Below, piece after piece: positions 3,290-29,912 of a stretch of DNA of 64,000 bases (positions are counted from its first letter, which is position 1; the number at the start of each line of letters is the position of its first letter). The notes under the pieces are model-generated. The model was not told the DNA's origin. It did no database searches and saw only the letters and a program-made list of their open reading frames with translations. Location of the stretch: NCBI GenBank assembly GCA_948678575.1, contig CAPPGO010000003.1, positions 133,691-197,690 of the forward strand, given 5' to 3'. The translations under genes were made by a program, and so were the position numbers. The DNA comes from an uncultured Clostridia bacterium. GTDB taxonomy: Bacteria; Bacillota; Clostridia; TANB77; CAG-508.

Positions 3290-3330
3290 AGCCAAAAAAT
3301 TCCCATTTTTACAATGGGAATTTTTTATTA
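3290..3330. terminator. bidirectional rho-independent terminator between convergent transcription units
   Basis: AATTCCCATT-TTTACA-ATGGGAATT 9-10 bp stem flanked by A-run and T-run. Confidence 0.5.
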
Positions 3331-5422
3331 TGGCTCTATTGAACCAAATAATTCATCAAATTTTGCTTCTAATTCTTTTTGAATATCTGATAACTCTTCT
3401 TGGCGTTTTTCTTCTGCTTTTGTTGCTTTCTCTTCTGCTGTTGGTTGATTTGTTTCAAGTGGTGTTTGGTGCTTATCATCAGCATTATCAATATCCGCAA
3501 ATAATTGATCTAATGATTCCAAAGATTGTTGTGCTCCTCCACCTTTTCCAGAGTTTTCATCACCTTCTTGATAAGGATTATATGGATTATATTTTCTCCA
3601 TTTTCCTCTTTCTATTTCAACATCATTATGGTCTACTTTATATTTTGTTATACTCTTTCCAATTGGATATTTAAAGTAATAATATTTATTGGCTTTAACT
3701 GGCTTGATACCTTTTTCATATATGATACAAAGATCTGTATCCATTCTACGAAGCTCATCTGGTGTCATAAGTGCTCTACCCATAATTTGGTCAGATTCAC
3801 TCTTACCTTGTTTCCAATCTTCTCTATCTTTGTTTACTGAAACATTGTCTCTTGTGATTGTCTTTTCACCTAATGCCTTAGAAAAATATTCAACAGTTTT
3901 TTGTGAGTTTGAACCTAAGAAAAGGTGAGTATCACAGTTACCAATGATTGTTTCATAAGCTTCTTTATAAACTGCCTCTAATTGGTCTAAGTTTTGTAAA
4001 ATAACACTAAATGATATTTTTCTACTTCTTGAAGTTGAAATCTTTTTATCAAAATCTGGTATTTGACCAATGTTTGCAAACTCATCTAGTATAAAATATG
4101 TAGGCACTGGAAGTGCTCCACCATTTGCATCAGCAAAGTCATATAACTGTTGTATCATTTGCGAAAAGAATATTGTAAGCAAGAAGTCATACGCTGTATG
4201 TGTATCAGAAGATATAACATACACTGCTGTTTTTTGACTACCTATTTTTGTAAAGTCTATTGTATCTGTTGATGTAACTTCTGCAATGTCTCTTGAATCA
4301 AACTTACCAAGTTTTGATTGCAATGAGCTTAAAATAGAACTAAATGTTTTTTCAGGAGCTAATTCAATAGATTTATAAAACATTCTAGCAGGATGATCAT
4401 AAGGTAATTGATTAATTAAATTTGTAAGTAAATTATCTCCATTATTATTATTTGCTGCTCTAATTAATTCAGAACAACTTGCTAAATTTTGTTCTTCTGG
4501 TGGTCTTACAGCTTTTAGGTAATAAATTAAAGCTTTAAGTAACATCTCAGACATATCATCCCAGAATGGGTCTTGTGCTTTTCCATCACCTTGACCTTTA
4601 ACAATTGTATTAGCAATAACATCGACATCTATTTCATTATTTATGTGATGTAATGGGTTATAACCATCACTGTTTTTAGGATTTACTAAGTTTAAAACTT
4701 TTATATCATAGCCTTTTGATTTAAAAAATCCAGCTGTTTTATCATATAATTCACCTTTTGGATCTGTAAATACATAAGAACCCAAAAGTTGTGTAGCATT
4801 TGGAATAACGTAAGAAGCTGATTTACCAGCACCAGAACCTCCGTACAACAAGGACATTTACATTGCCTCGTTTATCTGTTGGCAAGTAATTTTTTTCAGC
4901 TAATATAATACCTTTATTTCTACTTAAAATTTGATATTGCTCTCCGTTTTCACTCCAATCACTTGAACCATTTTCAATATTCTCATATTCGTGCTTTGGA
5001 AATGCTTTAATAACACCTACTAAAACAAAAGTACCATAGAAAATAACAAACCATTTGCAAACATACATATATGAACCAAAAAACTCTGTAAAACATCTTG
5101 ATACTGAGCCAATTGGATTTCTTAAACCATATCCTATTTTTTTACCATCTTCTGTTTCTTGTATTAATTCTTTACCTTCTTCATCAACACCTAGTAGTGC
5201 TTCAAAAAAAACACTCCAATCAAATTGCTCTTTAATGCTTCCATCATTTTCTCTAACAAACTCTTGTGTTTCTTGATCTATTACAGGTACCCATGCAACA
5301 TTGATAGCTACAGTAAATGGTGCAATTCCCCATAAAAGAACTGCTATTATCAAAACTGTAGCTACAATTATTTTTCCTTTTATTTTTTTTAAGGCCATTT
5401 TTAATTTTTCAAAAAATCCCAT
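3328..5422 (-). pseudogene. VirD4/TraG-family type IV coupling protein; 2-TM N-terminal domain (4823..5422) and ATPase domain (3328..4857) lie in different frames
   Basis: ATPase piece has Walker A LLYGGSGAGKSAS, VIPNATQLLGSYVFTDPKGELYDKTAGFF, YNPLHHI, Walker B ILDEFANIG and MTPDELRRMD, all VirD4/TraG hallmarks. The upstream ORF has two TM helices and ends NVNVLVV just before the P-loop. The two ORFs overlap by 35 nt in different frames, and a stop lies directly upstream of the second ATG. Confidence 0.6.
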
Positions 5423-5458
5423 ACTCTACTTCACCTTTTCCTATGTAAAATCTAGCCT

Positions 5459-5842
5459 CTATTCTCTTTCTGCTATATCTTTATCTTGTGCTTCTTTAAT
5501 TGCTTTTGATTTTTCTGCTTTTGCCTTTATAGCGGCTTTCTTTTTATCATCTAATTCATTTCCTGGAATTTCCATAGATGGATCTGTTTTTACATGATGT
5601 ACAGCTACACCATCTAAAACAAATTTAATATTATTATTAACAGGTTTTCCGCTATCCGTTGTAGCATCTCCACCACCATTTGAAGTAGATGCATTATCAT
5701 TTTCTTTGTGAAAATCTATTTCAAAAGTTCTACCACCTGGTGAAAATACTACCACTGCTATATCAAAACCTAATTCTTTTGCTAAATCTTGTTCTATCTC
5801 AACAGCTTCTATTTCTTCTGAATCCGAATTATTATTAGCCAT
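5459..5842 (-). CDS. hypothetical acidic/lysine-rich protein
   Basis: 127-aa ORF with good coding periodicity; no recognisable motif. Confidence 0.35.
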   Translation of the reverse strand: MANNNSDSEEIEAVEIEQDLAKELGFDIAVVVFSPGGRTFEIDFHKENDNASTSNGGGDATTDSGKPVNNNIKFVLDGVAVHHVKTDPSMEIPGNELDDKKKAAIKAKAEKSKAIKEAQDKDIAERE

Positions 5843-5857
5843 AACTTTTTCCTCCTA

Positions 5858-6391
5858 CTATTTATCCTTGTGTTCGCGGATTTCGAACGCAAAGTATTGT
5901 TTATGTGGTTTTAATTTACATTTTCCCTTAACCTCATTTGTTTCGTCATCAAAATACAAAGTTGGTTTGATTTCTTCAGTAGTTTCTGGATCGATTATTG
6001 AAATCGGTCTTTTCATATTTGGTGTGTATGCAAATTCCTTATACTCTGTTTCTTCTTCATTATATATTGAAGTACATTTTAAAGGCATTGGCTTTTTTGA
6101 AATTTTTACAATATCATAATCTAAAAATCCCATATTAACAACAACTCTCTCTTTGGCAAAAGAAAGAATAACTAGTGGATTTCCATCAGGTGCTGGATTT
6201 TCAACAAAAAATGTTTTCTTTTTGTTTCGTCCAACAAATTCTTCTGCATACTCTAATCTCTCAACTGTATATTTTGGAGAAGTTTTTAAATATTCTTTTT
6301 CTGTTCTGTTTACTTGATAAATAACAGTACTAGTTCCTTGTGGCTCTGTTATACTGAAATATTTTCCATGTAAATTGTTTTCTTCTTCCAT
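5858..6391 (-). CDS. hypothetical protein
   Basis: 177-aa ORF, tightly spaced with neighbours; no recognisable motif. Confidence 0.35.
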   Translation of the reverse strand: MEEENNLHGKYFSITEPQGTSTVIYQVNRTEKEYLKTSPKYTVERLEYAEEFVGRNKKKTFFVENPAPDGNPLVILSFAKERVVVNMGFLDYDIVKISKKPMPLKCTSIYNEEETEYKEFAYTPNMKRPISIIDPETTEEIKPTLYFDDETNEVKGKCKLKPHKQYFAFEIREHKDK

Positions 6392-6482: not shown

Positions 6483-7376
6483 TCAACTATTTTCAAAGTT
6501 TATGTCAACTTTTCTAGGATTAAATTTTGAAATCTTTTTTAGTTCCGTAAATAACTCTTTTTCTTTTGCTGAATATTCCTTTGGTATTAATATCCTTGCT
6601 TCTAAAACAAGATTTCCTCTACCACCTTTTCCATCTTTATATCCTTTATTTTCTATACTTATAATCTCTCCTGAACATATACCAGCTGGTATATACACAG
6701 AAATATCTTCATTTATTCCATTTATTTTTATCTTTGTTCCTAGTGCTGCTTCCCAAGGTGATAAATATAATAATTTTCTAATATTATAACCTTCTAATGA
6801 AAATTCATCATCATTTTTAATTTTTATTTTAATAAGTAAATCACCATTTTTTCCACCATTAGTGCCTGGTTTACCTTGACCCATAAGTCTAATTTTTTCA
6901 TTATTTCTAATACCTGCTGGAACATCTACCTTTAAAGTTTTCATACTACCTTCAACCGTACGAAGTGATATACTTTTTGTTACACCACGAAATGCCTCTT
7001 CTAGTCTAAGTTTCAACTCAGTTTCAACATTTTCGCCTTTTGCTGGTGCTTTAACATCTTTTTTTACACCTTTTTCTTCGCTAACATTTCCAAAGAAAAT
7101 AGTAAAGAAATCTCCTTTGGGTATATTTTGATATGTAGCTTTTTTACTTCCTACATTTCTATTCCAAATTCTATCATATTTCTTTTTTGTAGAAGCTTCT
7201 GATAAAATTTTATATGCTTCATTTATGTCTTTAAAACGCTCTTCACAATTTCTATTTCCAACATTTACATCAGGATGATATTTTTTTGCTTGTTCACGAT
7301 ACGCATTTTTTATTTCATTTATATTCACTTTATTAGTATCTAAATTCAATATTTTATAATAATCTTTGAAAATCAT
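6483..7376 (-). CDS. CbpA-like J-domain co-chaperone (J domain plus DnaJ C-terminal domains, no zinc finger)
   Basis: DYYKILNL...YREQAKKYHPD J-domain with HPD tripeptide; C-terminal DnaJ_C-type beta domains; extended -10 promoter TGATATAAT upstream. Confidence 0.6.
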   Translation of the reverse strand: MIFKDYYKILNLDTNKVNINEIKNAYREQAKKYHPDVNVGNRNCEERFKDINEAYKILSEASTKKKYDRIWNRNVGSKKATYQNIPKGDFFTIFFGNVSEEKGVKKDVKAPAKGENVETELKLRLEEAFRGVTKSISLRTVEGSMKTLKVDVPAGIRNNEKIRLMGQGKPGTNGGKNGDLLIKIKIKNDDEFSLEGYNIRKLLYLSPWEAALGTKIKINGINEDISVYIPAGICSGEIISIENKGYKDGKGGRGNLVLEARILIPKEYSAKEKELFTELKKISKFNPRKVDINFENS

Positions 7377-7464: not shown

Positions 7465-7510
7465 AAAAAAGCTATTTAGAAATTTTCTAAATAACTTTTT
7501 CTTTTTTATT
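7465..7510. terminator. rho-independent terminator (13-bp stem with one mismatch, T-run on both strands)
   Basis: AAAAAAGCTATTTAGAAA-TTT-TCTAAATAACTTTTTC located between the dockerin fragment and the cbpA-like gene. Confidence 0.45.
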
Positions 7511-7525
7511 ATTTACTTTTTAATT

Positions 7526-10500
7526 TCAAGAAATATTAATTTGTGCTAAATCTGTTATTGAAATTTTTCCATCACCATTTACATCTCCTGCAATATCTTC
7601 AATTCCTGTTAAAGTATTTTTTTCTATAAGATGTAATTTAACTTTTGCAACATCTACTACTGAAATCTTTCCATCTCTATTAATATCTCCTATAACTATT
7701 AATGTATATTCTACATTTTCTCCAATTTTTATTGTCATTCCTGTACATATAATACTATCATCTTACACTTTGTTGCCATTACTATCTAAAATTGTTATTT
7801 CTTTATTTGTTTCTATATTTTTCTTAAATTCAGTTACTGTTGTTTTTTGTGATATTCTTGATATATATGTTCCTTCAATTTTATATATATTTGAAGAAAT
7901 CTCTGACTGTTCTTTTTCTAGAATTCTTAATAGTAATTGTACATCACTTGTAGATATATCATTTGTTCCATTACTTCCTTCAATAGATACTAACTTGAAT
8001 ATAGTTTCACTTGGAACTTGTATTGTTTCTTTTACTTTTAATTTTACTTTAAATATTGTTTCTTCTTCAGTTATGTATTTATCACTTTCTGTTACAAATT
8101 TAAAGTTATCATCATTAAATGAATTTTCATCTAAATTCCAATTGTTTTGTTCTAAAATTTCTATAACTTCCAATTTTTCTTTATCATATTCAAATTTTCC
8201 TGTTAATGCTATTAATCCTTTTTTGAAGTTTTTCATATTTTTTACTTTTACATTTACTTCAAATTGCTCTCCTGAATTTAATGTTTCTTTTGGAGTTTCT
8301 AAACTTAAATTAAAACTTGGAAGTGTTGGAACATCTGGATTTTCCTCACCTTTTATCCATGCAACTACTGCTTTTGCTGTTCCTGTATTTCCTGCTGCAT
8401 CTACATATTCAAAAGTGCTTTCTCCGTTTTCTTTAAATGTATGTGTCATTTTTCCATCGTTATTCGTAACTGTAATATTTCTTATTGGATTAATTAATTC
8501 TGCTACTACATCTTTATTAGTTGGAGTAGTAATATTATAATTTACATCTGCTCTCGGTGTCTCATTTACTAGAACATTTTCATATAGTTTTATAACAGAT
8601 GCGGTAAACACTTTATACTTAGTAGCTGAATCCATTGGTGTGTAAATGCTTTCACATTCAAATTTAACATACAAAGCTTTTTTTGCTCTGGAAAATCAAT
8701 ATGTTTTAGAGAAACATTATTTCCTAAATTATCTTTACTTCCTGCTAATTCCCAATTAGTACCATCCATACTTACATAAATATTAACTTTTTTGGCTACA
8801 CCATAAGGTACTTTAACAATATTTACAGCACTTTTATCAGGTATAAAGTCTAATCCTGATATATATCTTGGTTGATCTAATTTAATTGTTATATAAGCAG
8901 GAAACATACCAGCTTTAGAACGCCAATAAGTATTAACATTTCCATCAATAACATTATTAAAGTTTCCTGCACCAGTTGCATTTTTTCAAATTCTTAGATT
9001 GAATATACCATTTTGTATCATCAGAATTATTTTCTTTAAAAGTAAAATATACTGGATCACTAGCAACTTGGGTTCCCGAAGCAGTTACTCTAACATAAAC
9101 TCTTGTATTTCCATTAAACACTGGATTAGTATTAGCAAATGAATTCCATTCTCCACTAGGATCTAATGTCCATTCCATATCATTAGTTGTATTTTATATA
9201 CAATTTTCTTCATCATTACTTGAAACTACTCCACCTGGAAATGCTCTTTTTGTAATATCAATTGTATAAATATTTGCCTCAGTCATAGGCAATCCAGATA
9301 TATGAATTTTAATATCATCATTTACATTAATACTTGCAATTTCCTCATTTGTAAGTTGTACAGAATGATCATAACATTCTTTCCATGTATTACCAGCATC
9401 TAAACTATAACTCCATGTTACTTGTGCACTTTGTAGTTGTTTAGATAAAATTATTTTACCTGCATATTTTCCATCAAATGAAAATGTTGCAAGTTCTGAT
9501 TGTGGTTTACCTAATAATGTTGTAGCTACCCCTCTGCGTATATTATTGGCACTCACTTCAGCCCATTGTAATGTATTTGTTCTTAATGCTACTGCCTCTG
9601 CATTTAATGTAGGATTACTAATTTTTCCAATAATCATTCCAAATAAATCGTAAAATGCAAGAGGTCTTGTTTTATATATAACCTGAAATTCTTTTATAAG
9701 ATTTAAACAATCTTCTTCTGTAAATACACTGTTATTTTTATATAATTATACTAAACTATACCAAGCATCAACATTTATTTTTTGTGCATTTATAACTTTA
9801 CGATAAAACTCATTTTGTTTTAATGGATCGCCTTCATAAGCATGTGCAAGCATTATATACTTTTCTGCTATTTTATAATTGCTATAATCATTAACTGCTT
9901 CTTGAGCAATTGCTAAATAACTTAGATTTGAACATCCAGTAGAATATTGTTGTCCCCATCCTAATAATGCTCTATAACCAATACCACTTTGCATAAGAGG
10001 AGACCTTTTAGTTGCAAAATCAAAAGTAGTTGTACCATATGATGAATCTCCCCATGTCCAACCTGAATAAATGTCCCCCAAGAAGCATCTCCATTACTAT
10101 TATAATTTGCAACTGCATAAGCAAGGTGTATTGGCTGACTAACTGGATATGCTGGTACTCCTGTTGAATTATACACATTAGTACTTGTTTGACCAAAACC
10201 AACACATTGGGTTCCAGCTGTAAAAACTATCCATTGTGGTACTAAATATTTTTGATAAGGTATACCATATTCTAAAAAGTGAAATTTATTATTCCACATA
10301 GTTTTATTTTCTTCACTATAATATTTATCATCAAAATATTGATAATATCTATTATATCTTAACCAAGCATGAGAATATCCTCCTCCTCTACTCATAACAT
10401 AATCCCTTAGCCATTCAATCTCATTATCTGATATGGAAGCTTTCATAACAGATTTCATTTCCTCAACTTCTAGTTTTGGAAATACTGAATTTAATTTATT

Positions 10501-11390
10501 TGCTAAGTACATTTTTTTATAAACTGCATAACGTCTTACTGGATCAGATACATGTGAACTATTTGGATCATTACGTTTTGAATTATCATATCCATCTTCT
10601 GCAACGTTTGGCATAAAAGAACGAACTAATGCAGAGTGTGTATGAGAAATAGCCATAATCATTTTTTAAATACATCGCCATTACGATAACCATTTGCTCC
10701 ATTATCATTTACATATAATCTTAAATATCTAGCACCTTCTATAGGCACTCTACATTCTACTGCATTTTGGTTTGGTGATACTGGTGCTCTATATTTTTCC
10801 GTCCAATTTTGACCATCATTTGATGTTGAAATAACAAATGTTACACCATTTCTAGCAGTTGATGTAGTATTTAATCCTAAATATGCATAAAAATAATCAT
10901 ATTCTGAGAAATTTCTTAAATCATAATATAAATCTGAAGTTGCATGAGCCCAAATACCTTTATCAAAACTTGTCGCTGTTCCACCAATTTTTACTGTTAT
11001 TTTTGTATTTGTTGATGTTTTATCATTAAGAATACTACCATATTTTGTACTTGATTTACTCATACGTGGTATGTCTGATAAATATGTAAGTTTACCTGTT
11101 GCTCTTGTTTCAGAAGAATATGTTGTTGGTACAGCTTTAACTTTTATTGCATTTTTTTATTCTTGTGCTACTTCAAATGTTTCTAAATACCCATTTGTAC
11201 TTTCCTTTATAGATGAATTTTGCTTATCTTCTACAATTTGCTCAGTAAATAAAACTCTATTTTTACCTACTACTTGCAACAATGTTGATTTCGTATTTAC
11301 TGCATTTGTGTTCGCAAAAAGATAAGTTCCCATTGCTAATGAACATGCTGTAAAAGCTGTTATTGCAATTTTCTTTTGAAAATCCTTCAT
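7526..11390 (-). pseudogene. disrupted, truncated paralog of the giant NPCBM/cohesin-dockerin protein (at least 4 frameshifts and at least 4 in-frame stops)
   Basis: Nine consecutive minus-strand ORF fragments: 11157..11390 signal peptide; 10659..11063 NPCBM-like; 9961..10662; 9746..10081; 9194..9637; 8957..9178; 8590..8907; 7763..8674 cohesin-like; 7526..7738 dockerin with GDINRDGKISVVD and GDVNGDGKISITD. They align colinearly by eye with the N-terminal 900 aa and the C-terminal cohesin-dockerin of the 11617..20028 protein, but alternate between three frames. Confidence 0.65.
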
Positions 11391-11513
11391 AATTTACTTT
11401 CACCTTTACTTTTTATTTATAGTTTTCCTATTATATCATCTTTTTCAAGCAATTTTAACATTTTTATAATAATAGCATATAATTATATTCTAGATTTTAT
11501 GATATAACCTTCA

Positions 11514-11616: not shown

Positions 11617-14600
11617 TTAATTAATTTCTTTTAAACCTATTATTACTAATTTCATTATTGCTAAATCATTTATATTTACTTCTCCGTCTTTATTTACATC
11701 TGCTGCTATTAGATTTATTCCTGTTAAAATTTCTTTATCTATTAAATGTAATTTTATTTTTGCTAAGTCTATTATATCCATTCTTCCATCTTCTTTAATG
11801 TCTCCTAATACAACTATTGTATATTCTTTATTTTCCTTTTCTACTTTCAATTTCATTCCAGTTTTTAATATTGCTTCTGCTGTTTGTTCATTGTTCTCTT
11901 TATCTACTACTTTTGTTGTTCTATTTACTGTTATATTTTTATTGAAGTTTGCTACTGTTGTATTTGGTAAAACATATTTTATAATGTTATCTGAAATTTC
12001 ATATTTTTCAGATGAAATTTTAAATGGTTCTATTGGTTCTTCTTTCTTTGCTATTTGCAATTTTAATGCTACATCATTTGCTACTATGTCTATTTCTCCA
12101 TTGCTTCCTTCTAAGTTTCTTATTCTAAAGTTTGTTTCTATTATGTTTTCTGGTTTTAATGTCTCTTTTACTTTCATGTTTATTCTAAATGCAACACCAT
12201 CTGATAATACATATTGACCATTTTCTGTTATGAATTTTAAATTATCTTCATTAAATGAATTCTCATCAAAATTCCATTTATTCTCTCCTACAATATCTAT
12301 TAGTTCTAATACATCTTTATTGTATTCTATTCTTCCTGCAATAGCTATCAAACCTTTTTCGATATTCTTTATATTGCAAATACTTACTATTACTTCAAAG
12401 TTGTCTCCTGGATTTAATTTTTCTTTTGGAGTTGATAAAACAGCTTTAAATCTTGGTGCTGTATTTTCTTCTATTACAATTTGTATTTTTAAGATTTCTT
12501 TATTACCATCTGCATCTGTTACTTCATAACTTACATCATATGTTCCTGCTTTTTCTGTATCTAAGTTTGTTGTAATTTTTACTGTATCTTTATTTGGTAT
12601 AATATTTCCATCTTCATTATCTTTTATTGTAATTAAAGAATATAAATCTAAGTCGTCTCCTTCTTTATATTTTAAAGTTTTAGCAATATTTGTAATTACT
12701 GGTTTTCCACCAGCTTTTACTTTATTAATAAATTCTACATAAGGTGCTTTATCTTCTTCTCTTAATTTATTATATGCTTCTATAACTGCTTTCTTTTCTT
12801 CAACGTTTACTTTCTTGTTACTTAATTCTTCCTCTGTCACTTTTGCTTGATAATCAGTTATTGTTTTTATTGCTTGTGCTTTTATTTCTTGATATTTTTC
12901 TTCTGCTGTTTTTATCCATGTTACTTCTGCTTTTGCTGTTCCTTTATTTCCTGCCTTGTCTACAAATTCAAATGTAAAACTTCCATTTGCTGCAAAGGTA
13001 TGTTTATTTCCACCTTCACTAGTTATTGTAATTTCTTCACTTGCATTACCTAATGTTGCTACTACGTTTCCTTCTGTTTCTGTTGTAACATCATATGTTA
13101 CTGTTGCAGTAGGAACTGTTTTGTCTATCCAGTTTACTGATACTGACTTCATTCCAGTATTTCCTGCTTCATCCACATATTCAAAAATATATTCCCCATT
13201 TTCTGTAAATGTATGAGTATTTCCACCTGCTACTGTAACATTATCTAATTTCACGCCATTTTTTGTAAAGTTTATTGTTGCTATTACATCTTGATTTGTT
13301 AATTTTGTAGTATTATATGTTACTTCTGCTATTGGTAATAGTTTATCTATCCAATTTACTGCTGCTTTTGCAACGCCTTTATTTCCTACTCTATCTACAA
13401 ACTCAAATGTAAATTCTCCATTCTCTGTAAATGTATGGGTATTTCCACCTTCACTATTGATTGTTATTTCTTCACTTTCTTCTACTAATGTTGCTACTAC
13501 ATTTCCATTTGTTGCTTTTGTAACATCATATATTACTTTTGCTGTTGGTGCTACCTTGTCAATACAATTTACAACTGCATCTACACTTCCTTTATTTCCT
13601 GCTCTATCTCTAAATTCGAACGTAAAGTTTCCATTTTCTGTAAATGTATATGAATTCTTACCGTCATTATTAGTTATAGTTACTTCGCCTTCTTCTTCTT
13701 CAAAAAGCACCAATACAGTTACATCTTTATTTGTTGGTGTTACTGTATCACCAAATAAGGTTGGAACTGGTACATCCTTATCAATCCAATTAACAACTGC
13801 TTTTGCAACACCTTTATTTCCTGCTGGTCCTATAAATTGGAATTCATACTCTCCATTTTCTGTAAATGTATGAGTATTTCCACCTTCTACTGTTACTCCT
13901 TCTAATTCTTCTCCATTCTTTGTAAAACTTATTGTGGCTACTACATCTTTATTTGTCATTTCTGTTGTATTATAAGTTATTTTTGCCACTGGTAAAGTTT
14001 TATCAATCCAGTTTACTTCTGCTTTTGCTGTTCCTTCATTTCCGTATTCATCTACAAATTCAAATGTAAATTCTTTGTTTTCTGTAAATGTATATGTATC
14101 TTTTCCGTCATTATTTTTTATTCTTACATTTTGTTTATCAAATTTTATTGTTGCTATTACTGGCTGATTTGTTGCTTGCATTATGTTATATGAAATATTT
14201 CCTGTTGGAACTTTTTTATCTATCCAATTTACTGTTGCAGTAGCTGTTCCTTTATTTCCAAGCTCATTGGTAAATTCAAATGTAAAGCTTCCATTTTCTG
14301 TAAAAGTATATGTATCTTTTCCGTCATTATTTGTTATTGTTAAATTCTTATCTTTTTTATCTAATGTAGCCACTACATTTTTATTTGTTTTATCTGTTAT
14401 ATCATATTTTACAGTAGCTGTTGGAATTGTATTATCAATCCAAGTTACCTTGGCTGTTGCTTCTCCTTCATTTCCATAAGGTCCTCTAAATTTAAATTTA
14501 AATTCCCCATTTTCATTAAAGGTATATTTATTGCTACCATCATTATTTAGTATAGTTACATTTTCATTAAATTCTCCTTTAACTTTAAACTTAACTGTTA

Positions 14601-17600
14601 CTGTTACAGGTTGATTTGTTATTTCCTCTGTACTATACTCAAATATTGCCTCTGGTAATGTCTTGCATATCCAATCCACATTTGCTGTTGCTGTTCCTTC
14701 ATTTCCATAAGGCCCTCTAAATTCAAATGTAAAGTTTCCATTTTCTGTAAATGTATGCTTGTTATTACCTTCATTATTTAATATTGTTACTTTATCACTA
14801 GGCTCTCCATTCACCTTAAATTTAACTGTTACTGTTACATCTTTATTGGTTGGAGTTGGTATATCATACTCAAATATTGCTTCTGGTAATGTCTTGCATA
14901 TCCAATCTACTGTTGCTGTTGTACTTCCTTTATTTCCTTCACTGTCTTCAAATTGGAAAGTAAAGCTTCCATTTTCTGTAAATGTATATTCTGTACTTCC
15001 ATTATTATTTAATACTGTTATTTCTGTACTAGGATTAATTAATGTTACTACTACATCCTGATTAGTTAATTCTTTATTGCTATATTTTACTTCTGCTGTT
15101 GGAATAACTACATCTTTCTTTGTTATATCTTCATAGAAATTAAACATCCTAGCTCCAACATGTCTTTTCGCACTTGTATAAGAAGTGTTTGTACCTGTTA
15201 TTTTTACATATCTTACTTTAATTGGTTCATCAAAATCTATTGTTTTTGTATTTTGGTCGTTTGCCCAACCTGTTATTGTTGCAATATCAGTAAAGTTTTC
15301 ACCATCCATACTTCCTTGTATTGTACCACCAAGTATTTTTCCATTTTCAGTATGTGGTACATAATCCATTGCACTTAGATACACTGCACTGTCAAATTTT
15401 ACTATTATATATTTTTCAGTATCTGTACCTGCTGCTGAGTTTAACCATCTTGTATTATAGTTACCATCTATTGCATTTGCTGCTGCACCATTTTGTGCTT
15501 TATCCTCTGCTGAAACTCCTGCCACTTCTAATTTTGATACTGGTATATATTTTCTTGTATCTTCTTGATTGTCTGCTGTAAAGTTAAATTCTACTACATC
15601 ACTTGGTGCAAATATACCCCTCGCTTTTTTTCTAATTAAAAGTTTTGCATCGCCTTCTACTATTGGCTCTTCTGTTGAATAATCAGTCCATCCATTAATA
15701 CTTCTAGCTCTTGATTCATTTCTTTCAATTTTCCATTCTAGTACATCTGTACCTTCCATACCTATTAATCTATTTTCTAAATCATTTAAGTATGCTGATA
15801 TCACAGGTGTAAGTGATTTTTGAATACCTATTGTATATTCTTTGTTGTTAATTCTTATTTTAATTTTGTCATCACCATTTACTGTTTCTACTTCTTCTAA
15901 TGTTAGTGTATGTGTATCTGCTATTCCATGTTTCCATGTAGTTCCACTATTCAAACTATACTCCCAATTTGAACCTTTAAATTCATCTGTTAAAATTATC
16001 TTATTAGCTTCTTCTCCATCAAATGAGAATGATGCTACTTTTTTAACTGTTATATCTTCATACAAGTTAACCATTGCAAGTGAAGCAAATATACCATATC
16101 CTTCCATTTCAATTTTTACATACTGTCCTACTATACTCTCATTAAATGTAATATTCTTTAAATTTTCGTCTTGTATAGCATTTTCTATTCTTCCTGCTTC
16201 TATCCAATCCTGACCATTTTCGCTTACATATACATAAGCATTTTTTATAATACAAGGATCTTCACTTCTATATTTTTTTTGTTTATACTCTAATGCAGAT
16301 ATGTACTTGCTAGTATCAAGTTTTATTGTATATGTTGCTCTCTTACCTTCTATTGAATATCTAAAATCTGTATGCCACAAAGTATTAATATTTCCATCTA
16401 TTGCATTTTGTGCATAATATGGTCTAGTACTATCTATTGATTGACTTGAATACTCATGTACTGATAAATGTGATATTGGTATATATTTTCTATTATCTGG
16501 TTGATTATCTACTGTAAACTGATATTCTGCTATATCACTTGCTACATATTCTCCTTCTGCTTTTGTTCTAACATAAAGTGTTCCTTCACTATCTTCTGTT
16601 AAGTTTGGCTCTTCCTCTGCATATGCTTTCCAACTTCCATCATTAAACTTCCATTCAAGTTTAGTTGCATCTTTTAATCCAATTAGTCTGTTCTCTAAAT
16701 CATTTACATATGGTGTTTCATTATATGCTTTTTTATCTAAATCTATTAAATATTCCGTAGTATCTTCAGCAAATCTTATCTTAATATCATTTTCTGCTGT
16801 TAACACTTTTAATTCTTCATTATTTAATTGATGTACCTCTAATGTACCATTTTTCCAATTTACACCACCATCTATACTATATTGCCAATTTAAATTTTTA
16901 TATTGATCTCTAATTTTAATCTTTCCTGCTTCTTCTCCATCTAGTCTAAAATCAGCAACACATACCTTTGTTATGTCTTCATAAAAATTAAACATTTTTG
17001 CTGCTATGAAAGTTCTTCCATCCCCATAATTCGATGTAGCTTGGAACTTTACATATTTAGCTTCTTTTGATTTTGAAAAATTAACAGTTTTGATATTAGC
17101 ATTATTTCCCCATCCACTAAACGTTTCAACTTCCGTCCAATTTGTTCCATCAAGGCTTATAAATACTTTTCCTGCACTTACGCATCCATTTCCACTTCCT
17201 GCTGGTACATATTCTACTGCTGATATAAAAGTGGTTTTGTCTAACTCTATTGATATAAATCTTTCACTATCGCCTCCACTATAATTTGAATGCCATCTTG
17301 TATTTATATTTCCATCTAATGCATTAGCAATATGCCCATTCTGTCCTCCACCTGTTGCTTCACTTGAGAATGTATGTAACTTTATTCTTGATAATGGGAT
17401 ATATTTTCTAGTATCTGGTTGATTATCTGCTGTAAATGTATATCTTCTAGAATCACTTGAAATCGCTGTTCCTGTTGCTATCTTTCTAATTTCTACAGTT
17501 TTGTCTCCCGTTAAATCTGGTTCTGCTGTTTTATATGAAGTCCATGCATCTGTATCATTCAAACGCCATTCTAAAGTTTCATTTGCGCATATAATACGGT

Positions 17601-20028
17601 TTTCTAAGTCATTATTATATAAATTATTAGGAAGAGTTCCTTTTGTAATATCAATTGTATATATTATACTTTCTAATCCCATGAATTTAATTAATATGTC
17701 TTTTTCTGGTGTTATACTTGCAATCTCTTCTGCTGTTAAAGTTGTTGTTGGTTCAGTTTTAAAGTCTGCTACCCATGTTTCTCCATTATCTAAGCTATAT
17801 TTATAAGCATTTTCATAATTAGAATTTCTAACTAGTTTACCTGCATTTTCTCCATCAAATGAAAATGCCATTGGTGGATCTTGTGCTTGATTTAAAAGTT
17901 GTCTTGCATGAACTCTAGTTGGTTCTGCATGATCTGCTTCATCATTAGAAGTATACGAACATGCTCTTGTTAGTACTTCTCTTTCTAATCCATCTATTTC
18001 TATTCTATCTGCACCCTCTAAATATGGTCTTATAACTTTTATTAAGTCAAATAATGCTACTGGATGATGTTCATAAGCTGTAATAATTTTTCTAGCTAAA
18101 GTTGCCCAATCATTACTTGTTATTGTTCCACCTTGATTTTTCACACTCATATTTTTATAAAGACTAATCATATAATCATAAGTATCCAAATTTAAATCAT
18201 TAATTTCTAATGATTTAAAATAAGTTTCTATTTTCTGATTATTGTCTGTATATGAGTTAGCAACTAAATCATAATATAATGATTTTCTATATGCTTCTAA
18301 GTTATTTAGGTTATCTTGACCTAAATATAAATAACCTGTACTTGATGCAATTTTGTTACCACTAATTTTTTGATCAGCAAAATATTTATTTCCCCAATTA
18401 AATAATAATCTTACACGTTGACCACCACCCCAAGTTGTACCAGCACCACTCCAGTTTCCATACCTTGTAGACCAAAATCCTTTTCCGTCATTTGTTTGAT
18501 AATATGTTATATATAATTCGTGTCCTACTTGATATGCTCCAACTGCTGGAAGTCCATTAACACGATTCATACTTTGTCCAGCTCTTGATGCATTCCAACA
18601 TATTCCACCATTTTCTAGTGTCATCCAAAAACGAACTGCTCCATCTCCATAAGGAACTTTATATTTTTCTCCTAAAACTTCATCTTCTAGCATATATTTT
18701 TTTACATATTTTTCTCTGTTTGCTTCATCTCTATATGCTGGTCTATTATAAACTGGCGAAACATAGGCATACCAGTAAAAATTATATCCTGTCTGATTTC
18801 CTTGACCATTGGGTTTTGCTATAGGTGTATTACAGTATTCATTAAGCCATACAAATTCGTCATTTCTTACTGGTTCTTTCATTAATAAACGCATTAATGC
18901 AACATGATAGTCTTTTACCCAGTCATTATGTACCATTGTACCTGTCATTCCAGTGTTGTTTACTCTTCTAAATTTATTATTGTCAAATAAATACTTTAAT
19001 ATTTCAAAACGTTCTATATAATCATAAGTTGCTGTTTGTTCCCCAAAGTTTAAAGGTCCTATTAGTGCATCAGTTGAATATGATGCTGCTAACGATATTA
19101 TCATTTTTTGATATACATATCCATTTTCTGTTTTAAGATCTTCTTTGTAAGTACAATATAAGTTTGACAAAACTTCAATAAATCTTACAGTATTTAGTTC
19201 TCCAACTTCTACTACTTGTTCAAGAGTATCATCTTTACTAAATAACCAATCAAAAGTTTCACGAGCCTTATTATCATAATTAGCATAGCTTACAATTGTA
19301 TTATAGTCAAATTTTCTTACAAATTCTCTTTCAAGAATAAGTCTATAATTGTTATTATAATTATAATCTGCATCATGACTTCCTAATATCTCATCATAAT
19401 ACTCTAATTTATGTATTTTATCATAAGTTTCTTCTTTATCAACATAATCACTCTTAACGAGTTTTGCTCCTCCTAATACAGCATGGTCTGCTGCATTACT
19501 ACCATTTGGATCAACATATATACGTAAGTATTTATATCCTTCAATATTAACATCTATATTTAATGCATCACTTACACCAGTTACTACTGAAGATTTAGCA
19601 ATTAAATTAGTCCATTTATTACCATCATTAGATACTAATACCCTAAACCATACACCATTACTATTGTTACCACGTGATGCATCTACACCAGCTTTTGTAA
19701 TAAATCTTGTGTATTCTCCAGATAGTTCAGATATATCATAAGTTATTTGTGCTTTTGCATGAATACCTAAACCTTTGAAAAAAATCTTGTTTTTTCCATT
19801 TTCTTTTAAGGTAATCTTTGAACCTTCTGGTGGTGCATCTTTTTTGATGCTACCCCAACTGACATAAGACCAGTTATTGGTAGTAATATAGTCTAAGTCA
19901 GATAAGTATTTAACTTCTTCGTCTGAACTGGCTAATACTTCATTGCCAAAACAACTAAGAATAGTTAAAATCATAAAACAGCAAGCAATTAATATAAAAA
20001 TTGCTTGTTTTCTTTGTGTTTGTTTCAT
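11617..20028 (-). CDS. giant secreted multimodular protein, 2803 aa (NPCBM, central unassigned domain, 3x F5/8 type C, 10 Ig-like repeats, FIVAR-like, cohesin-like, dockerin)
   Basis: Start ATG at 20028 with RBS GGGGGAGGAAAAAC; the tracker's 15-codon N-extension is rejected. Signal peptide MKQTQRKQAIFILIACCFMILTILSCFG. NPCBM motifs YLSDLDY...GLGIHA...DHAVLGGAKL. Three F5/8 discoidin domains (A.DGN.NT.WHS ... DG.NWT). Ten tandem 72-78 aa repeats (TFTENG.FTFEF.D..GN.G...V.WIDK). C-terminal cohesin-like module about 12046..12457. Two dockerin repeats about 11638..11815: GDIKEDGRMDIIDLAKIKLHLI and ADVNKDGEVNINDLAIMKLVII. Confidence 0.8.
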   Translation of the reverse strand: MKQTQRKQAIFILIACCFMILTILSCFGNEVLASSDEEVKYLSDLDYITTNNWSYVSWGSIKKDAPPEGSKITLKENGKNKIFFKGLGIHAKAQITYDISELSGEYTRFITKAGVDASRGNNSNGVWFRVLVSNDGNKWTNLIAKSSVVTGVSDALNIDVNIEGYKYLRIYVDPNGSNAADHAVLGGAKLVKSDYVDKEETYDKIHKLEYYDEILGSHDADYNYNNNYRLILEREFVRKFDYNTIVSYANYDNKARETFDWLFSKDDTLEQVVEVGELNTVRFIEVLSNLYCTYKEDLKTENGYVYQKMIISLAASYSTDALIGPLNFGEQTATYDYIERFEILKYLFDNNKFRRVNNTGMTGTMVHNDWVKDYHVALMRLLMKEPVRNDEFVWLNEYCNTPIAKPNGQGNQTGYNFYWYAYVSPVYNRPAYRDEANREKYVKKYMLEDEVLGEKYKVPYGDGAVRFWMTLENGGICWNASRAGQSMNRVNGLPAVGAYQVGHELYITYYQTNDGKGFWSTRYGNWSGAGTTWGGGQRVRLLFNWGNKYFADQKISGNKIASSTGYLYLGQDNLNNLEAYRKSLYYDLVANSYTDNNQKIETYFKSLEINDLNLDTYDYMISLYKNMSVKNQGGTITSNDWATLARKIITAYEHHPVALFDLIKVIRPYLEGADRIEIDGLEREVLTRACSYTSNDEADHAEPTRVHARQLLNQAQDPPMAFSFDGENAGKLVRNSNYENAYKYSLDNGETWVADFKTEPTTTLTAEEIASITPEKDILIKFMGLESIIYTIDITKGTLPNNLYNNDLENRIICANETLEWRLNDTDAWTSYKTAEPDLTGDKTVEIRKIATGTAISSDSRRYTFTADNQPDTRKYIPLSRIKLHTFSSEATGGGQNGHIANALDGNINTRWHSNYSGGDSERFISIELDKTTFISAVEYVPAGSGNGCVSAGKVFISLDGTNWTEVETFSGWGNNANIKTVNFSKSKEAKYVKFQATSNYGDGRTFIAAKMFNFYEDITKVCVADFRLDGEEAGKIKIRDQYKNLNWQYSIDGGVNWKNGTLEVHQLNNEELKVLTAENDIKIRFAEDTTEYLIDLDKKAYNETPYVNDLENRLIGLKDATKLEWKFNDGSWKAYAEEEPNLTEDSEGTLYVRTKAEGEYVASDIAEYQFTVDNQPDNRKYIPISHLSVHEYSSQSIDSTRPYYAQNAIDGNINTLWHTDFRYSIEGKRATYTIKLDTSKYISALEYKQKKYRSEDPCIIKNAYVYVSENGQDWIEAGRIENAIQDENLKNITFNESIVGQYVKIEMEGYGIFASLAMVNLYEDITVKKVASFSFDGEEANKIILTDEFKGSNWEYSLNSGTTWKHGIADTHTLTLEEVETVNGDDKIKIRINNKEYTIGIQKSLTPVISAYLNDLENRLIGMEGTDVLEWKIERNESRARSINGWTDYSTEEPIVEGDAKLLIRKKARGIFAPSDVVEFNFTADNQEDTRKYIPVSKLEVAGVSAEDKAQNGAAANAIDGNYNTRWLNSAAGTDTEKYIIVKFDSAVYLSAMDYVPHTENGKILGGTIQGSMDGENFTDIATITGWANDQNTKTIDFDEPIKVRYVKITGTNTSYTSAKRHVGARMFNFYEDITKKDVVIPTAEVKYSNKELTNQDVVVTLINPSTEITVLNNNGSTEYTFTENGSFTFQFEDSEGNKGSTTATVDWICKTLPEAIFEYDIPTPTNKDVTVTVKFKVNGEPSDKVTILNNEGNNKHTFTENGNFTFEFRGPYGNEGTATANVDWICKTLPEAIFEYSTEEITNQPVTVTVKFKVKGEFNENVTILNNDGSNKYTFNENGEFKFKFRGPYGNEGEATAKVTWIDNTIPTATVKYDITDKTNKNVVATLDKKDKNLTITNNDGKDTYTFTENGSFTFEFTNELGNKGTATATVNWIDKKVPTGNISYNIMQATNQPVIATIKFDKQNVRIKNNDGKDTYTFTENKEFTFEFVDEYGNEGTAKAEVNWIDKTLPVAKITYNTTEMTNKDVVATISFTKNGEELEGVTVEGGNTHTFTENGEYEFQFIGPAGNKGVAKAVVNWIDKDVPVPTLFGDTVTPTNKDVTVLVLFEEEEGEVTITNNDGKNSYTFTENGNFTFEFRDRAGNKGSVDAVVNCIDKVAPTAKVIYDVTKATNGNVVATLVEESEEITINSEGGNTHTFTENGEFTFEFVDRVGNKGVAKAAVNWIDKLLPIAEVTYNTTKLTNQDVIATINFTKNGVKLDNVTVAGGNTHTFTENGEYIFEYVDEAGNTGMKSVSVNWIDKTVPTATVTYDVTTETEGNVVATLGNASEEITITSEGGNKHTFAANGSFTFEFVDKAGNKGTAKAEVTWIKTAEEKYQEIKAQAIKTITDYQAKVTEEELSNKKVNVEEKKAVIEAYNKLREEDKAPYVEFINKVKAGGKPVITNIAKTLKYKEGDDLDLYSLITIKDNEDGNIIPNKDTVKITTNLDTEKAGTYDVSYEVTDADGNKEILKIQIVIEENTAPRFKAVLSTPKEKLNPGDNFEVIVSICNIKNIEKGLIAIAGRIEYNKDVLELIDIVGENKWNFDENSFNEDNLKFITENGQYVLSDGVAFRINMKVKETLKPENIIETNFRIRNLEGSNGEIDIVANDVALKLQIAKKEEPIEPFKISSEKYEISDNIIKYVLPNTTVANFNKNITVNRTTKVVDKENNEQTAEAILKTGMKLKVEKENKEYTIVVLGDIKEDGRMDIIDLAKIKLHLIDKEILTGINLIAADVNKDGEVNINDLAIMKLVIIGLKEIN
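12910..15160 (-). repeat. ten tandem coding repeats of about 225 bp (Ig-like / Cry22Aa-Ig / DUF5011-type modules) inside the giant gene
   Basis: Recurrent peptide unit ...TNKDVV.T......TI.NNDG...YTFTENG.FTFEF.D..GNKG.A.A.VNWIDK..P.A seen 10 times; DNA-level recurrence of tccattttctgtaaatgtat-like segments. Confidence 0.65.
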
Positions 20029-20104
20029 GTTTTTCCTCCCCCATATTTTAATTTTTATAACTTTTATTAACATAACATTTACTTTATTATACTATCATTG
20101 GCAG

Positions 20105-29789: not shown

Positions 29790-29912
29790 GGCTTTCCTTT
29801 GGGAAGGCATGCAAACTCACATAAATACACTACTTATCGCTGCTTTCTTCCGAACCTGACGAGATTCATAGCTTTTTATTGAAGCATACCTTCCCAAAGA
29901 AAAGCCGTCTTA
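29790..29912 (-). ncRNA. ffs: signal recognition particle RNA, small (4.5S-type) form
   Basis: Minus-strand transcript whose 5' strand AGACGGCTTTTCTTTGGGAAGGTATGC pairs with its 3' strand GCATGCCTTCCCAAAGGAAAGCC. The apical region carries the domain IV consensus GTCAGGTTCGGAAGAAAGCAGCGATAAG. It occupies the conserved tadA-scr-dnaX slot, and only about 190 nt are available, which excludes the long Alu-containing form. Confidence 0.7.

Follow-up and report, generated by a model that had tools for sequence, protein, structure and literature searches.

Is a gene that lies in pieces beside an intact relative necessarily a failed copy of that relative? The question is raised by a 64,000-nucleotide (nt) stretch of DNA (hereafter the window) from an uncultured Clostridia bacterium (NCBI GenBank assembly GCA_948678575.1, contig CAPPGO010000003.1, positions 133,691 to 197,690 of the forward strand). 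Nine open reading frames (ORFs) of 77, 134, 233, 111, 147, 73, 105, 303 and 70 amino acids (aa) fill positions 7526-11390 on its minus strand, and the series begins 226 nt past a giant ORF (11617-20073) of the same strand. The original prediction, made from the sequence alone, had counted these nine fragments and read them as a tandem duplicate of the giant gene undergoing pseudogenisation. The layout and the pseudogenisation both stood up to analysis; descent from the giant did not. The region is very probably a fixed, non-functional pseudogene that is a mosaic of three types of paralog, here called C, B and A, that decayed only later, and that is no decayed copy of the giant gene.

Architecture and expression signals of the broken gene

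TBLASTN with the giant protein (2818 aa) as query, a check that had been proposed for mapping the breaks, returned matches in the region that are colinear with that protein at 21-45% identity, in the order NPCBM, core, FSFDG/FIVAR-like module, F5/8 type C, Ig-like repeat, cohesin and dockerin. The fragments aligned colinearly with the relatives L004, L005 and P0001 as well, and a three-frame read traced the reading frame across them as 2>0>1>0>1. Pfam bore out the expected NPCBM N-terminus (63 bits; cut-off 23.9) and cohesin-dockerin C-terminus (Cohesin, 38 bits, cut-off 24.1; Dockerin_1, 46.5 bits, cut-off 22.9). The F5/8 type C match was weak, at 25.7 bits under the cut-off of 28.2, yet the region aligns to the family. 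Ig repeats had been thought to be missing altogether, which proved incorrect: the pseudogene retains one Ig-like repeat (about 8354-8560) and one FIVAR-like/F5-8C module, compared with ten repeats and three modules in the giant.

A signal peptide, a ribosome-binding site and a terminator had been described as kept, and all three were found. The N-terminus, judged by eye, resembles a signal peptide (MKDFQKKIAITAFTACSLAMGTYLFANTNA); the ribosome-binding site AAGGTGA is read at 11400-11406 (minus strand), 9 nt before the ATG at 11390; and an AT-rich terminator hairpin of 17 base pairs, followed by a U-run, lies at 7465-7501 (minus strand; free energy (dG) -15.6, z -4.0). Ahead of the start, a putative promoter of the extended -10 kind (TTAAAA, a 17-nt spacer, TATAAT, and TG upstream) is recognised by its match to consensus only (11430-11458, minus strand). 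Further along, the 303-aa ORF that carries the cohesin takes as its start codon a TTG within the former F5/8C domain, and the 70-aa ORF is the dockerin.

On the opposite strand, an antisense ORF of 256 aa (7770-8540, plus strand) has a low-complexity translation with many S, F, L and V residues; in all likelihood it reflects the base skew of the strand and is no gene. Outside the region, intact ORFs of at least 120 aa cover 89% of the window, so the breakage is local and poor assembly is not its cause.

Ten lesions disable the gene

We read the lesions against intact members of the same protein family: C86 for the 5' half, the gene of L084 for the middle, and A86 for the 3' end, with the giant added for the last lesion (these genes are described below). 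Ten disabling or truncating lesions were mapped: four TAA stops in the reading frame, five indels that shift it, and a 369-nt deletion that leaves it unchanged. The original prediction had put both the frame changes and the in-frame stops at four or more, in agreement with this count; the 369-nt deletion is a lesion beyond those it had listed.

All ten lie on the minus strand and are given here from the 5' end of the gene. A TAA stands where C86 has TAT (Tyr) at 11157-11159. At 10689-10695 a lone AAATGGT marks the scar of the 369-nt (123-codon) deletion, where C86 has two such 7-nt direct repeats 369 nt apart; this deletion takes away the end of NPCBM and the beginning of the core, with 13 near-invariant positions of the core among the losses. 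A run of seven A residues in C86 has been cut to six by a frameshifting 1-nt deletion (10662-10667), and an indel at a G5 run (10075-10079, relative to C86) moves the reading from frame 0 to frame 1 after the residues NGDASW. The last lesion of the 5' half is a TAA in place of CAA (Gln) at 9746-9748. Compared with L084, the middle of the gene has a TAA for TTA (Leu) at 9194-9196, a frameshifting net deletion of 11 nt (10 + 1) at about 8984-8988, and a frameshifting 1-nt deletion in or beside an A7 run at about 8677-8688. Towards the 3' end a TAA replaces the GAA (Glu) of A86 at 7763-7765. Finally, within 7526-7541, a 5-nt deletion (near 7539) and a 2-nt deletion, both seen against A86 and the giant, create a premature TGA (7528-7526) that shortens the dockerin by about 10 codons. 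These are the marks of ordinary decay that came later than the mosaic itself: a 369-nt deletion between 7-nt repeats, 1-nt slippage in an A-run, an indel at a G-run, deletions of 11, 5 and 2 nt, and four single-base changes to TAA.

The lesions are fixed and still accumulating

The pseudogene is fixed in the population, and its lesions are heritable rather than sequencing errors. A look-up of the downstream DnaJ-like protein (6483-7376) led to contigs of independent short-read metagenome assemblies, and the identical fragment pattern was present in all of those read (22/22, in two groups). These groups, made up of SPAdes metagenome contigs, are 99.99% and 99.91% identical to the window across 17.4 kb. 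The 134-aa fragment, which exists solely through a TAA upstream and a frameshift downstream, served for another look-up: 275 indexed blocks of the collection contain it, and every one of the 23 contigs read had the same pattern, including the NCBI metagenome-assembled genome (MAG) GCA_948567915.1.

Nine differences were found among the window and the genomes L001 and L002. One is a synonymous single-nucleotide polymorphism (SNP) in the giant gene; the other eight lie in the pseudogene, where seven are SNPs (transitions without exception, each of them non-synonymous in the reconstructed frame) and the eighth is a 7-nt deletion in L002. The same three genomes showed no difference in the 7.4 kb of downstream genes. 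Given the lengths compared, eight of nine variants within the pseudogene has a binomial p of 4e-5, and in this small sample the region is under relaxed selective constraint. A further strain variant, P0028, has an additional frameshift in a T-run. The extra lesions of L002 and P0028 indicate that decay is ongoing.

The population is extremely clonal over the 17.4 kb: the window is separated from L001 by one or two SNPs, and from L002 by eight SNPs and one 7-nt deletion. Nearly all variation between metagenome samples falls within the pseudogene.

The pseudogene is a mosaic of three paralogs

Close relatives of the pseudogene were not easily seen. A word-index homolog search with the reconstructed protein reached 43% identity at best and missed both the fragments and the close relatives, and in a neighbour-joining tree of the core the pseudogene stood alone on a long branch, a placement that was misleading before C86 was found. 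An exhaustive HMMER search with the first 194 core residues matched P0027, a protein of 3814 aa, at 82%. P0027 is the product of C86, one of three intact family genes that stand in tandem on contig L086; the others are A86 (2659 aa, giant-like, with cohesin and dockerin) and B86 (1525 aa). The latter resembles p84, the product of an intact 1527-aa B-type gene borne by L084, which was found by metagenome scan.

Against these genes the pseudogene divides into three segments, all on the minus strand. Segment I (9446-11390) is of C-type, with signal peptide, linker, NPCBM and the Cys/His core, and is 80-86% identical in protein and 84% in DNA to C86/P0027. Segment II (8351-9445), of B-type, holds the FIVAR-like module, the F5/8 type C domain and the one Ig-like repeat, and has about 85% protein and 84% DNA identity to the L084 gene. 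Segment III (7526-8350) is of A-type; its linker, cohesin, X-module and dockerin are 65% identical in protein and 77% in DNA to the 3' end of A86, compared with 48% and 67% for the 3' end of the giant. Over the same cohesin/X-module/dockerin end, the giant and A86 share 47% protein identity.

Both junctions are in frame and lie in modules that the paralogs share. The first (9445-9470, minus strand) falls inside a conserved ATFSFDG-YAG motif, with C86 matched upstream and the B-type gene of L084 downstream; the second (8351-8522, minus strand) falls inside the Ig-like repeat common to all paralogs. In a sliding window, identity between the pseudogene and p84 is 30-45% at residues 100-620 and rises to 82-92% at residues 630-1000, whereas p84 and other B-type genes are uniformly 65-90% identical over their full length. 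In-frame junctions in shared modules are the expected trace of homologous recombination between tandem paralogs.

Comparison at the DNA level places the same segments in a common frame. On the minus strand, window 17559-12898 (the giant) matches A86 at 74% identity, 10714-9451 matches C86 at 84%, 9465-8351 matches B86 at 67%, and 8522-7502 matches the 3' end of A86 at 77%; against L084, window 9492-8351 reaches 84%. One 1.8-kb match at 72% (12458-10689, minus strand) covers the 3' end of the A gene of L086, the intergenic spacer and the 5' end of its C gene, and the junction between the first and second genes is therefore syntenic between the window and L086. Comparison of the window with L003-L085 revealed no synteny in the flanks.

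Relation to the giant gene

The giant gene (11617-20073, minus strand; 2818 aa as its longest ORF) is intact and of A-type, with NPCBM, core, three FIVAR-like/F5-8C modules, ten Ig-like repeats, cohesin and dockerin, and it carries its own hairpin directly past its stop codon. Other assemblies call its product as 2803 aa, and a look-up found no record of the 2818-aa form. Aligned region by region within the family, the pseudogene and the giant protein are 36% identical in NPCBM, 21-25% in the core and 48% at the C-terminus. For the NPCBM and core regions of the pseudogene, the giant ranks only 71st to 88th among 80-88 family hits. Their DNA is similar over 800 nt of the 3' end (67%) and in the Ig repeat, with no further tracts. 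A recent tandem duplicate should have its neighbour as closest relative across the gene; here the neighbour reaches 21-36% where other genes reach 65-86%. With a core so divergent and closer relatives elsewhere, the pseudogene is no decayed duplicate of the giant.

The giant is itself a mosaic when set against A86 (L086 1810-9789): its N-terminal 840 aa or so, covering NPCBM and core, are about 35% identical, and the remainder matches at 74% in DNA. Its core groups with that of L007A (52-66% identity), and it departs from the family at 13 of 71 invariant positions, the most of any member in the alignment. Module exchange thus looks like a general habit of the family.

Timing of the loss of constraint

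By the Nei-Gojobori method, the middle segment of the pseudogene compared with p84 gives a synonymous divergence (dS) of 0.58, a non-synonymous divergence (dN) of 0.10 and a dN/dS of 0.17; the 5' half compared with C86 gives 0.36, 0.11 and 0.32, respectively. When branches were separated with L004 as outgroup, the derived estimates of dN/dS were about 0.22 on the pseudogene branch and about 0.13 on that of p84. Of 56 family-invariant residues, 52 are kept in the pseudogene and four are lost. With dN/dS at 0.17-0.32 and so few of these residues gone, most of the divergence built up under purifying selection and constraint was lost recently. The neutral phase would correspond very roughly to 3-7% divergence, although these figures are rough. 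Loss of constraint would then predate the present strain diversity (0.01-0.1%) and be far younger than the split from the nearest intact relatives.

Origin of the mosaic and alternative explanations

These results can be put together as follows. The ancestral context would have been an A-C-B array of the kind still intact in the related bacterium of L086. Homologous recombination among its tandem paralogs, through unequal crossing-over with deletion or through gene conversion, may have formed the C/B/A mosaic. Constraint would later have been lost, recently relative to the split from the nearest relatives, and decay appears to go on in single strains. Before its death the gene probably encoded a secreted glycan-binding enzyme held at the cell surface or in a complex by cohesin-dockerin contacts, possibly with the giant.

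Several points weigh against parts of this reconstruction. L086 is no close relative, as a nearby Zip-family gene is only about 60% identical in protein, and with such a distance the orthology of the arrays rests on one syntenic junction. The middle segment is nearer to L084 (dS 0.58) than to B86 (dS 0.78), and dS differs among the three segments, so that one deletion in an A-C-B array is too simple a history. Since the giant is also a mosaic relative to A86, the chimera may have worked long before its inactivation and need not be a product of it. The excess of polymorphism in the pseudogene comes from three genomes and nine variants only, and is marginal when measured against synonymous sites alone (p about 0.03 by our estimate). 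Residual transcription or translation of the fragments is also possible.

Other explanations of the locus fare considerably worse. That the region is a recent tandem duplicate of the giant, now decaying after the loss of its repeats, would suit its position next to the giant in the same orientation, the colinear domain order, and a cohesin-dockerin C-terminus that the two have in common and that most family members lack. It is nonetheless very unlikely, because the core and NPCBM of the giant are among the most distant in the family, DNA similarity ends after the 3' end and the Ig repeat, and each segment has a far closer intact relative elsewhere. Sequence comparison also speaks against a silent cassette, in which the dead copy would serve as a gene-conversion donor that varies the giant surface protein in the manner of antigenic variation. 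A mosaic family with paralogs in tandem is where such a cassette might be expected, and the Ig repeat and 3' end are shared with the giant at 67-77% DNA identity. Yet no high-identity tract joins pseudogene and giant, the strains compared show just one SNP in the giant, a synonymous one, leaving no ongoing conversion visible, and the would-be cassette gathers random lesions; we regard this role as no more probable than recent duplication.

The remaining alternatives concern the lesions themselves. Homopolymer errors of sequencing or assembly could break up an intact gene, and three of the five frameshifts do lie at or beside A or G runs; but over 20 independent assemblies from short reads, and an NCBI MAG, contain the same lesions, the four nonsense codons and the 369-, 11- and 5-nt deletions are unlike homopolymer errors, and the rest of the window is intact, so that an artefact has next to no chance of being the explanation. 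Slightly more room, but still little, is left for continued use of the fragments, either as separate small proteins (for example the 303-aa cohesin ORF and the 70-aa dockerin) or as a full-length product made by recoding or phase variation. The promoter-like site, ribosome-binding site, signal peptide and terminator have been kept, and some frameshifts fall at slippery runs. A full-length protein would, however, need five frame corrections and read-through of four TAA codons and would still miss the 13 near-invariant residues lost with the 369-nt deletion. Against use as small proteins, the 303-aa ORF starts at a TTG inside a former domain, and the seven non-synonymous SNPs out of seven, together with further frameshifts in strains, argue against selection on the fragments. 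We also considered a phase-variable contingency locus, in which one reversible tract interrupts an otherwise intact ORF, and rejected it given ten independent lesions that include nonsense codons and deletions outside repeats. A fixed mosaic pseudogene accounts for the locus far better than any of these.

Taken by itself, it is nothing unusual among bacterial pseudogenes. Host-restricted bacteria such as Mycobacterium leprae and Salmonella Typhi carry pseudogenes that arose from frameshifts, nonsense mutations and small deletions, and the present one is like them in its multiple independent lesions, lost purifying selection, clonal fixation, continuing decay and still recognisable regulatory signals. 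It is unlike them in being a mosaic of three paralog types and in belonging to an uncharacterised family so far seen only in gut MAGs. Chimeric genes and pseudogenes formed by recombination between paralogous surface-protein genes are also known, as in the babA/babB chimeras of Helicobacter pylori. There too, junctions are in frame within blocks shared by the paralogs, and the surface-protein paralogs are tandem or dispersed; here, by contrast, there is no sign of ongoing reversible switching, and the product is dead.

A family of long secreted proteins in tandem arrays

The pseudogene fits, by its order of NPCBM, Cys/His core, FSFDG (FIVAR-like) module, F5/8 type C domain and Ig-like repeat, into an unnamed family of what appear from their domains to be secreted multidomain surface proteins, whose cohesin and/or dockerin modules complete the set. 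When one genome per species was scanned, at least 375 relatives turned up, and every one came from a gut MAG; the source species of the window was not returned, and the peptide patterns used do not match the pseudogene. A literature search found nothing relevant. The presence of cohesin and dockerin modules suggests assembly on the cell surface or into complexes. NagH, NagJ and NanJ of Clostridium perfringens are non-cellulosomal glycan-active proteins that combine cohesin and dockerin with CBM32 (F5/8 type C) and FIVAR modules. By description, the present family is like them in consisting of secreted multimodular proteins of low-GC gut Firmicutes that join NPCBM and F5/8 type C domains with cohesin and dockerin. 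It differs in having no recognisable glycoside-hydrolase domain and in its core of about 500 aa with invariant Cys and His.

This core (for example residues 200-760 or so of the giant, window 17794-19476, and about 200-690 of P0001) had no Pfam family above threshold and no sequence match in the PDB. The only hint from Pfam is a faint match to Transglut_core (E = 0.14), across the Cys-to-His stretch. A confident AlphaFold2 model had no counterpart among PDB folds beyond TPR-like or designed helical repeats. That the core is a papain-like or transglutaminase-like cysteine enzyme may be considered a lead, not a result.

Elsewhere among gut bacteria, arrays that place divergent members of the family in tandem are old and conserved, and their second and third genes are intact; the intact second copy that had been sought in relatives exists. 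Two divergent members stand in tandem at six loci (L007, L011, L014, L018, L045 and L063) and three at L086 (1810-26203). Of the two-gene loci, four have the order A-B and two the order B-A. The array proteins, from several uncultured gut Firmicutes, reach 3,814 aa; the shortest, truncated by the end of its contig, has about 1,370 aa. At L085 (108-4948), a B-type gene is split into ORFs of 359 and 1256 aa that overlap at about 1178-1187, which may reflect either another, independent frameshift within the family or faulty assembly.

A more general reading, which we offer tentatively and consider rather doubtful, is that the dead gene is a fossil of frequent module exchange in A-C-B arrays widespread in uncultured gut Firmicutes, with N-terminal halves made of NPCBM and a Cys/His 'enzyme' and C-terminal binding and anchoring halves reshuffled between paralogs, and with the core of about 500 aa as an uncharacterised catalytic domain that has no solved structural relative. 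In any case, the locus draws attention to a large, unnamed family whose very long secreted proteins occur in tandem arrays, exchange modules and share a conserved Cys/His core with no known structural relative, and the pseudogene with its intact relatives is a dated example of loss and mosaicism in it. An annotation should combine the nine ORFs in a single pseudogene feature instead of listing nine hypothetical proteins. The loss suggests that the species, at this locus at least, has reduced its set of these surface proteins to just the giant gene.

Genomic neighbourhood

Just downstream of the pseudogene, three small ORFs (neighbours at 4823-6391) without significant Pfam match and the DnaJ-like gene lie beside a gene for a TraG/VirD4-like type IV coupling protein (3328-4857, minus strand; Pfam T4SS-DNA_transf, TrwB_AAD_bind and TraG-D_C). 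This neighbourhood may be the remnant of a conjugative element. The sole Rfam matches in the window are a bacterial small signal recognition particle (SRP) RNA (29798-29895, minus strand) and one transfer RNA (38544-38616, minus strand).

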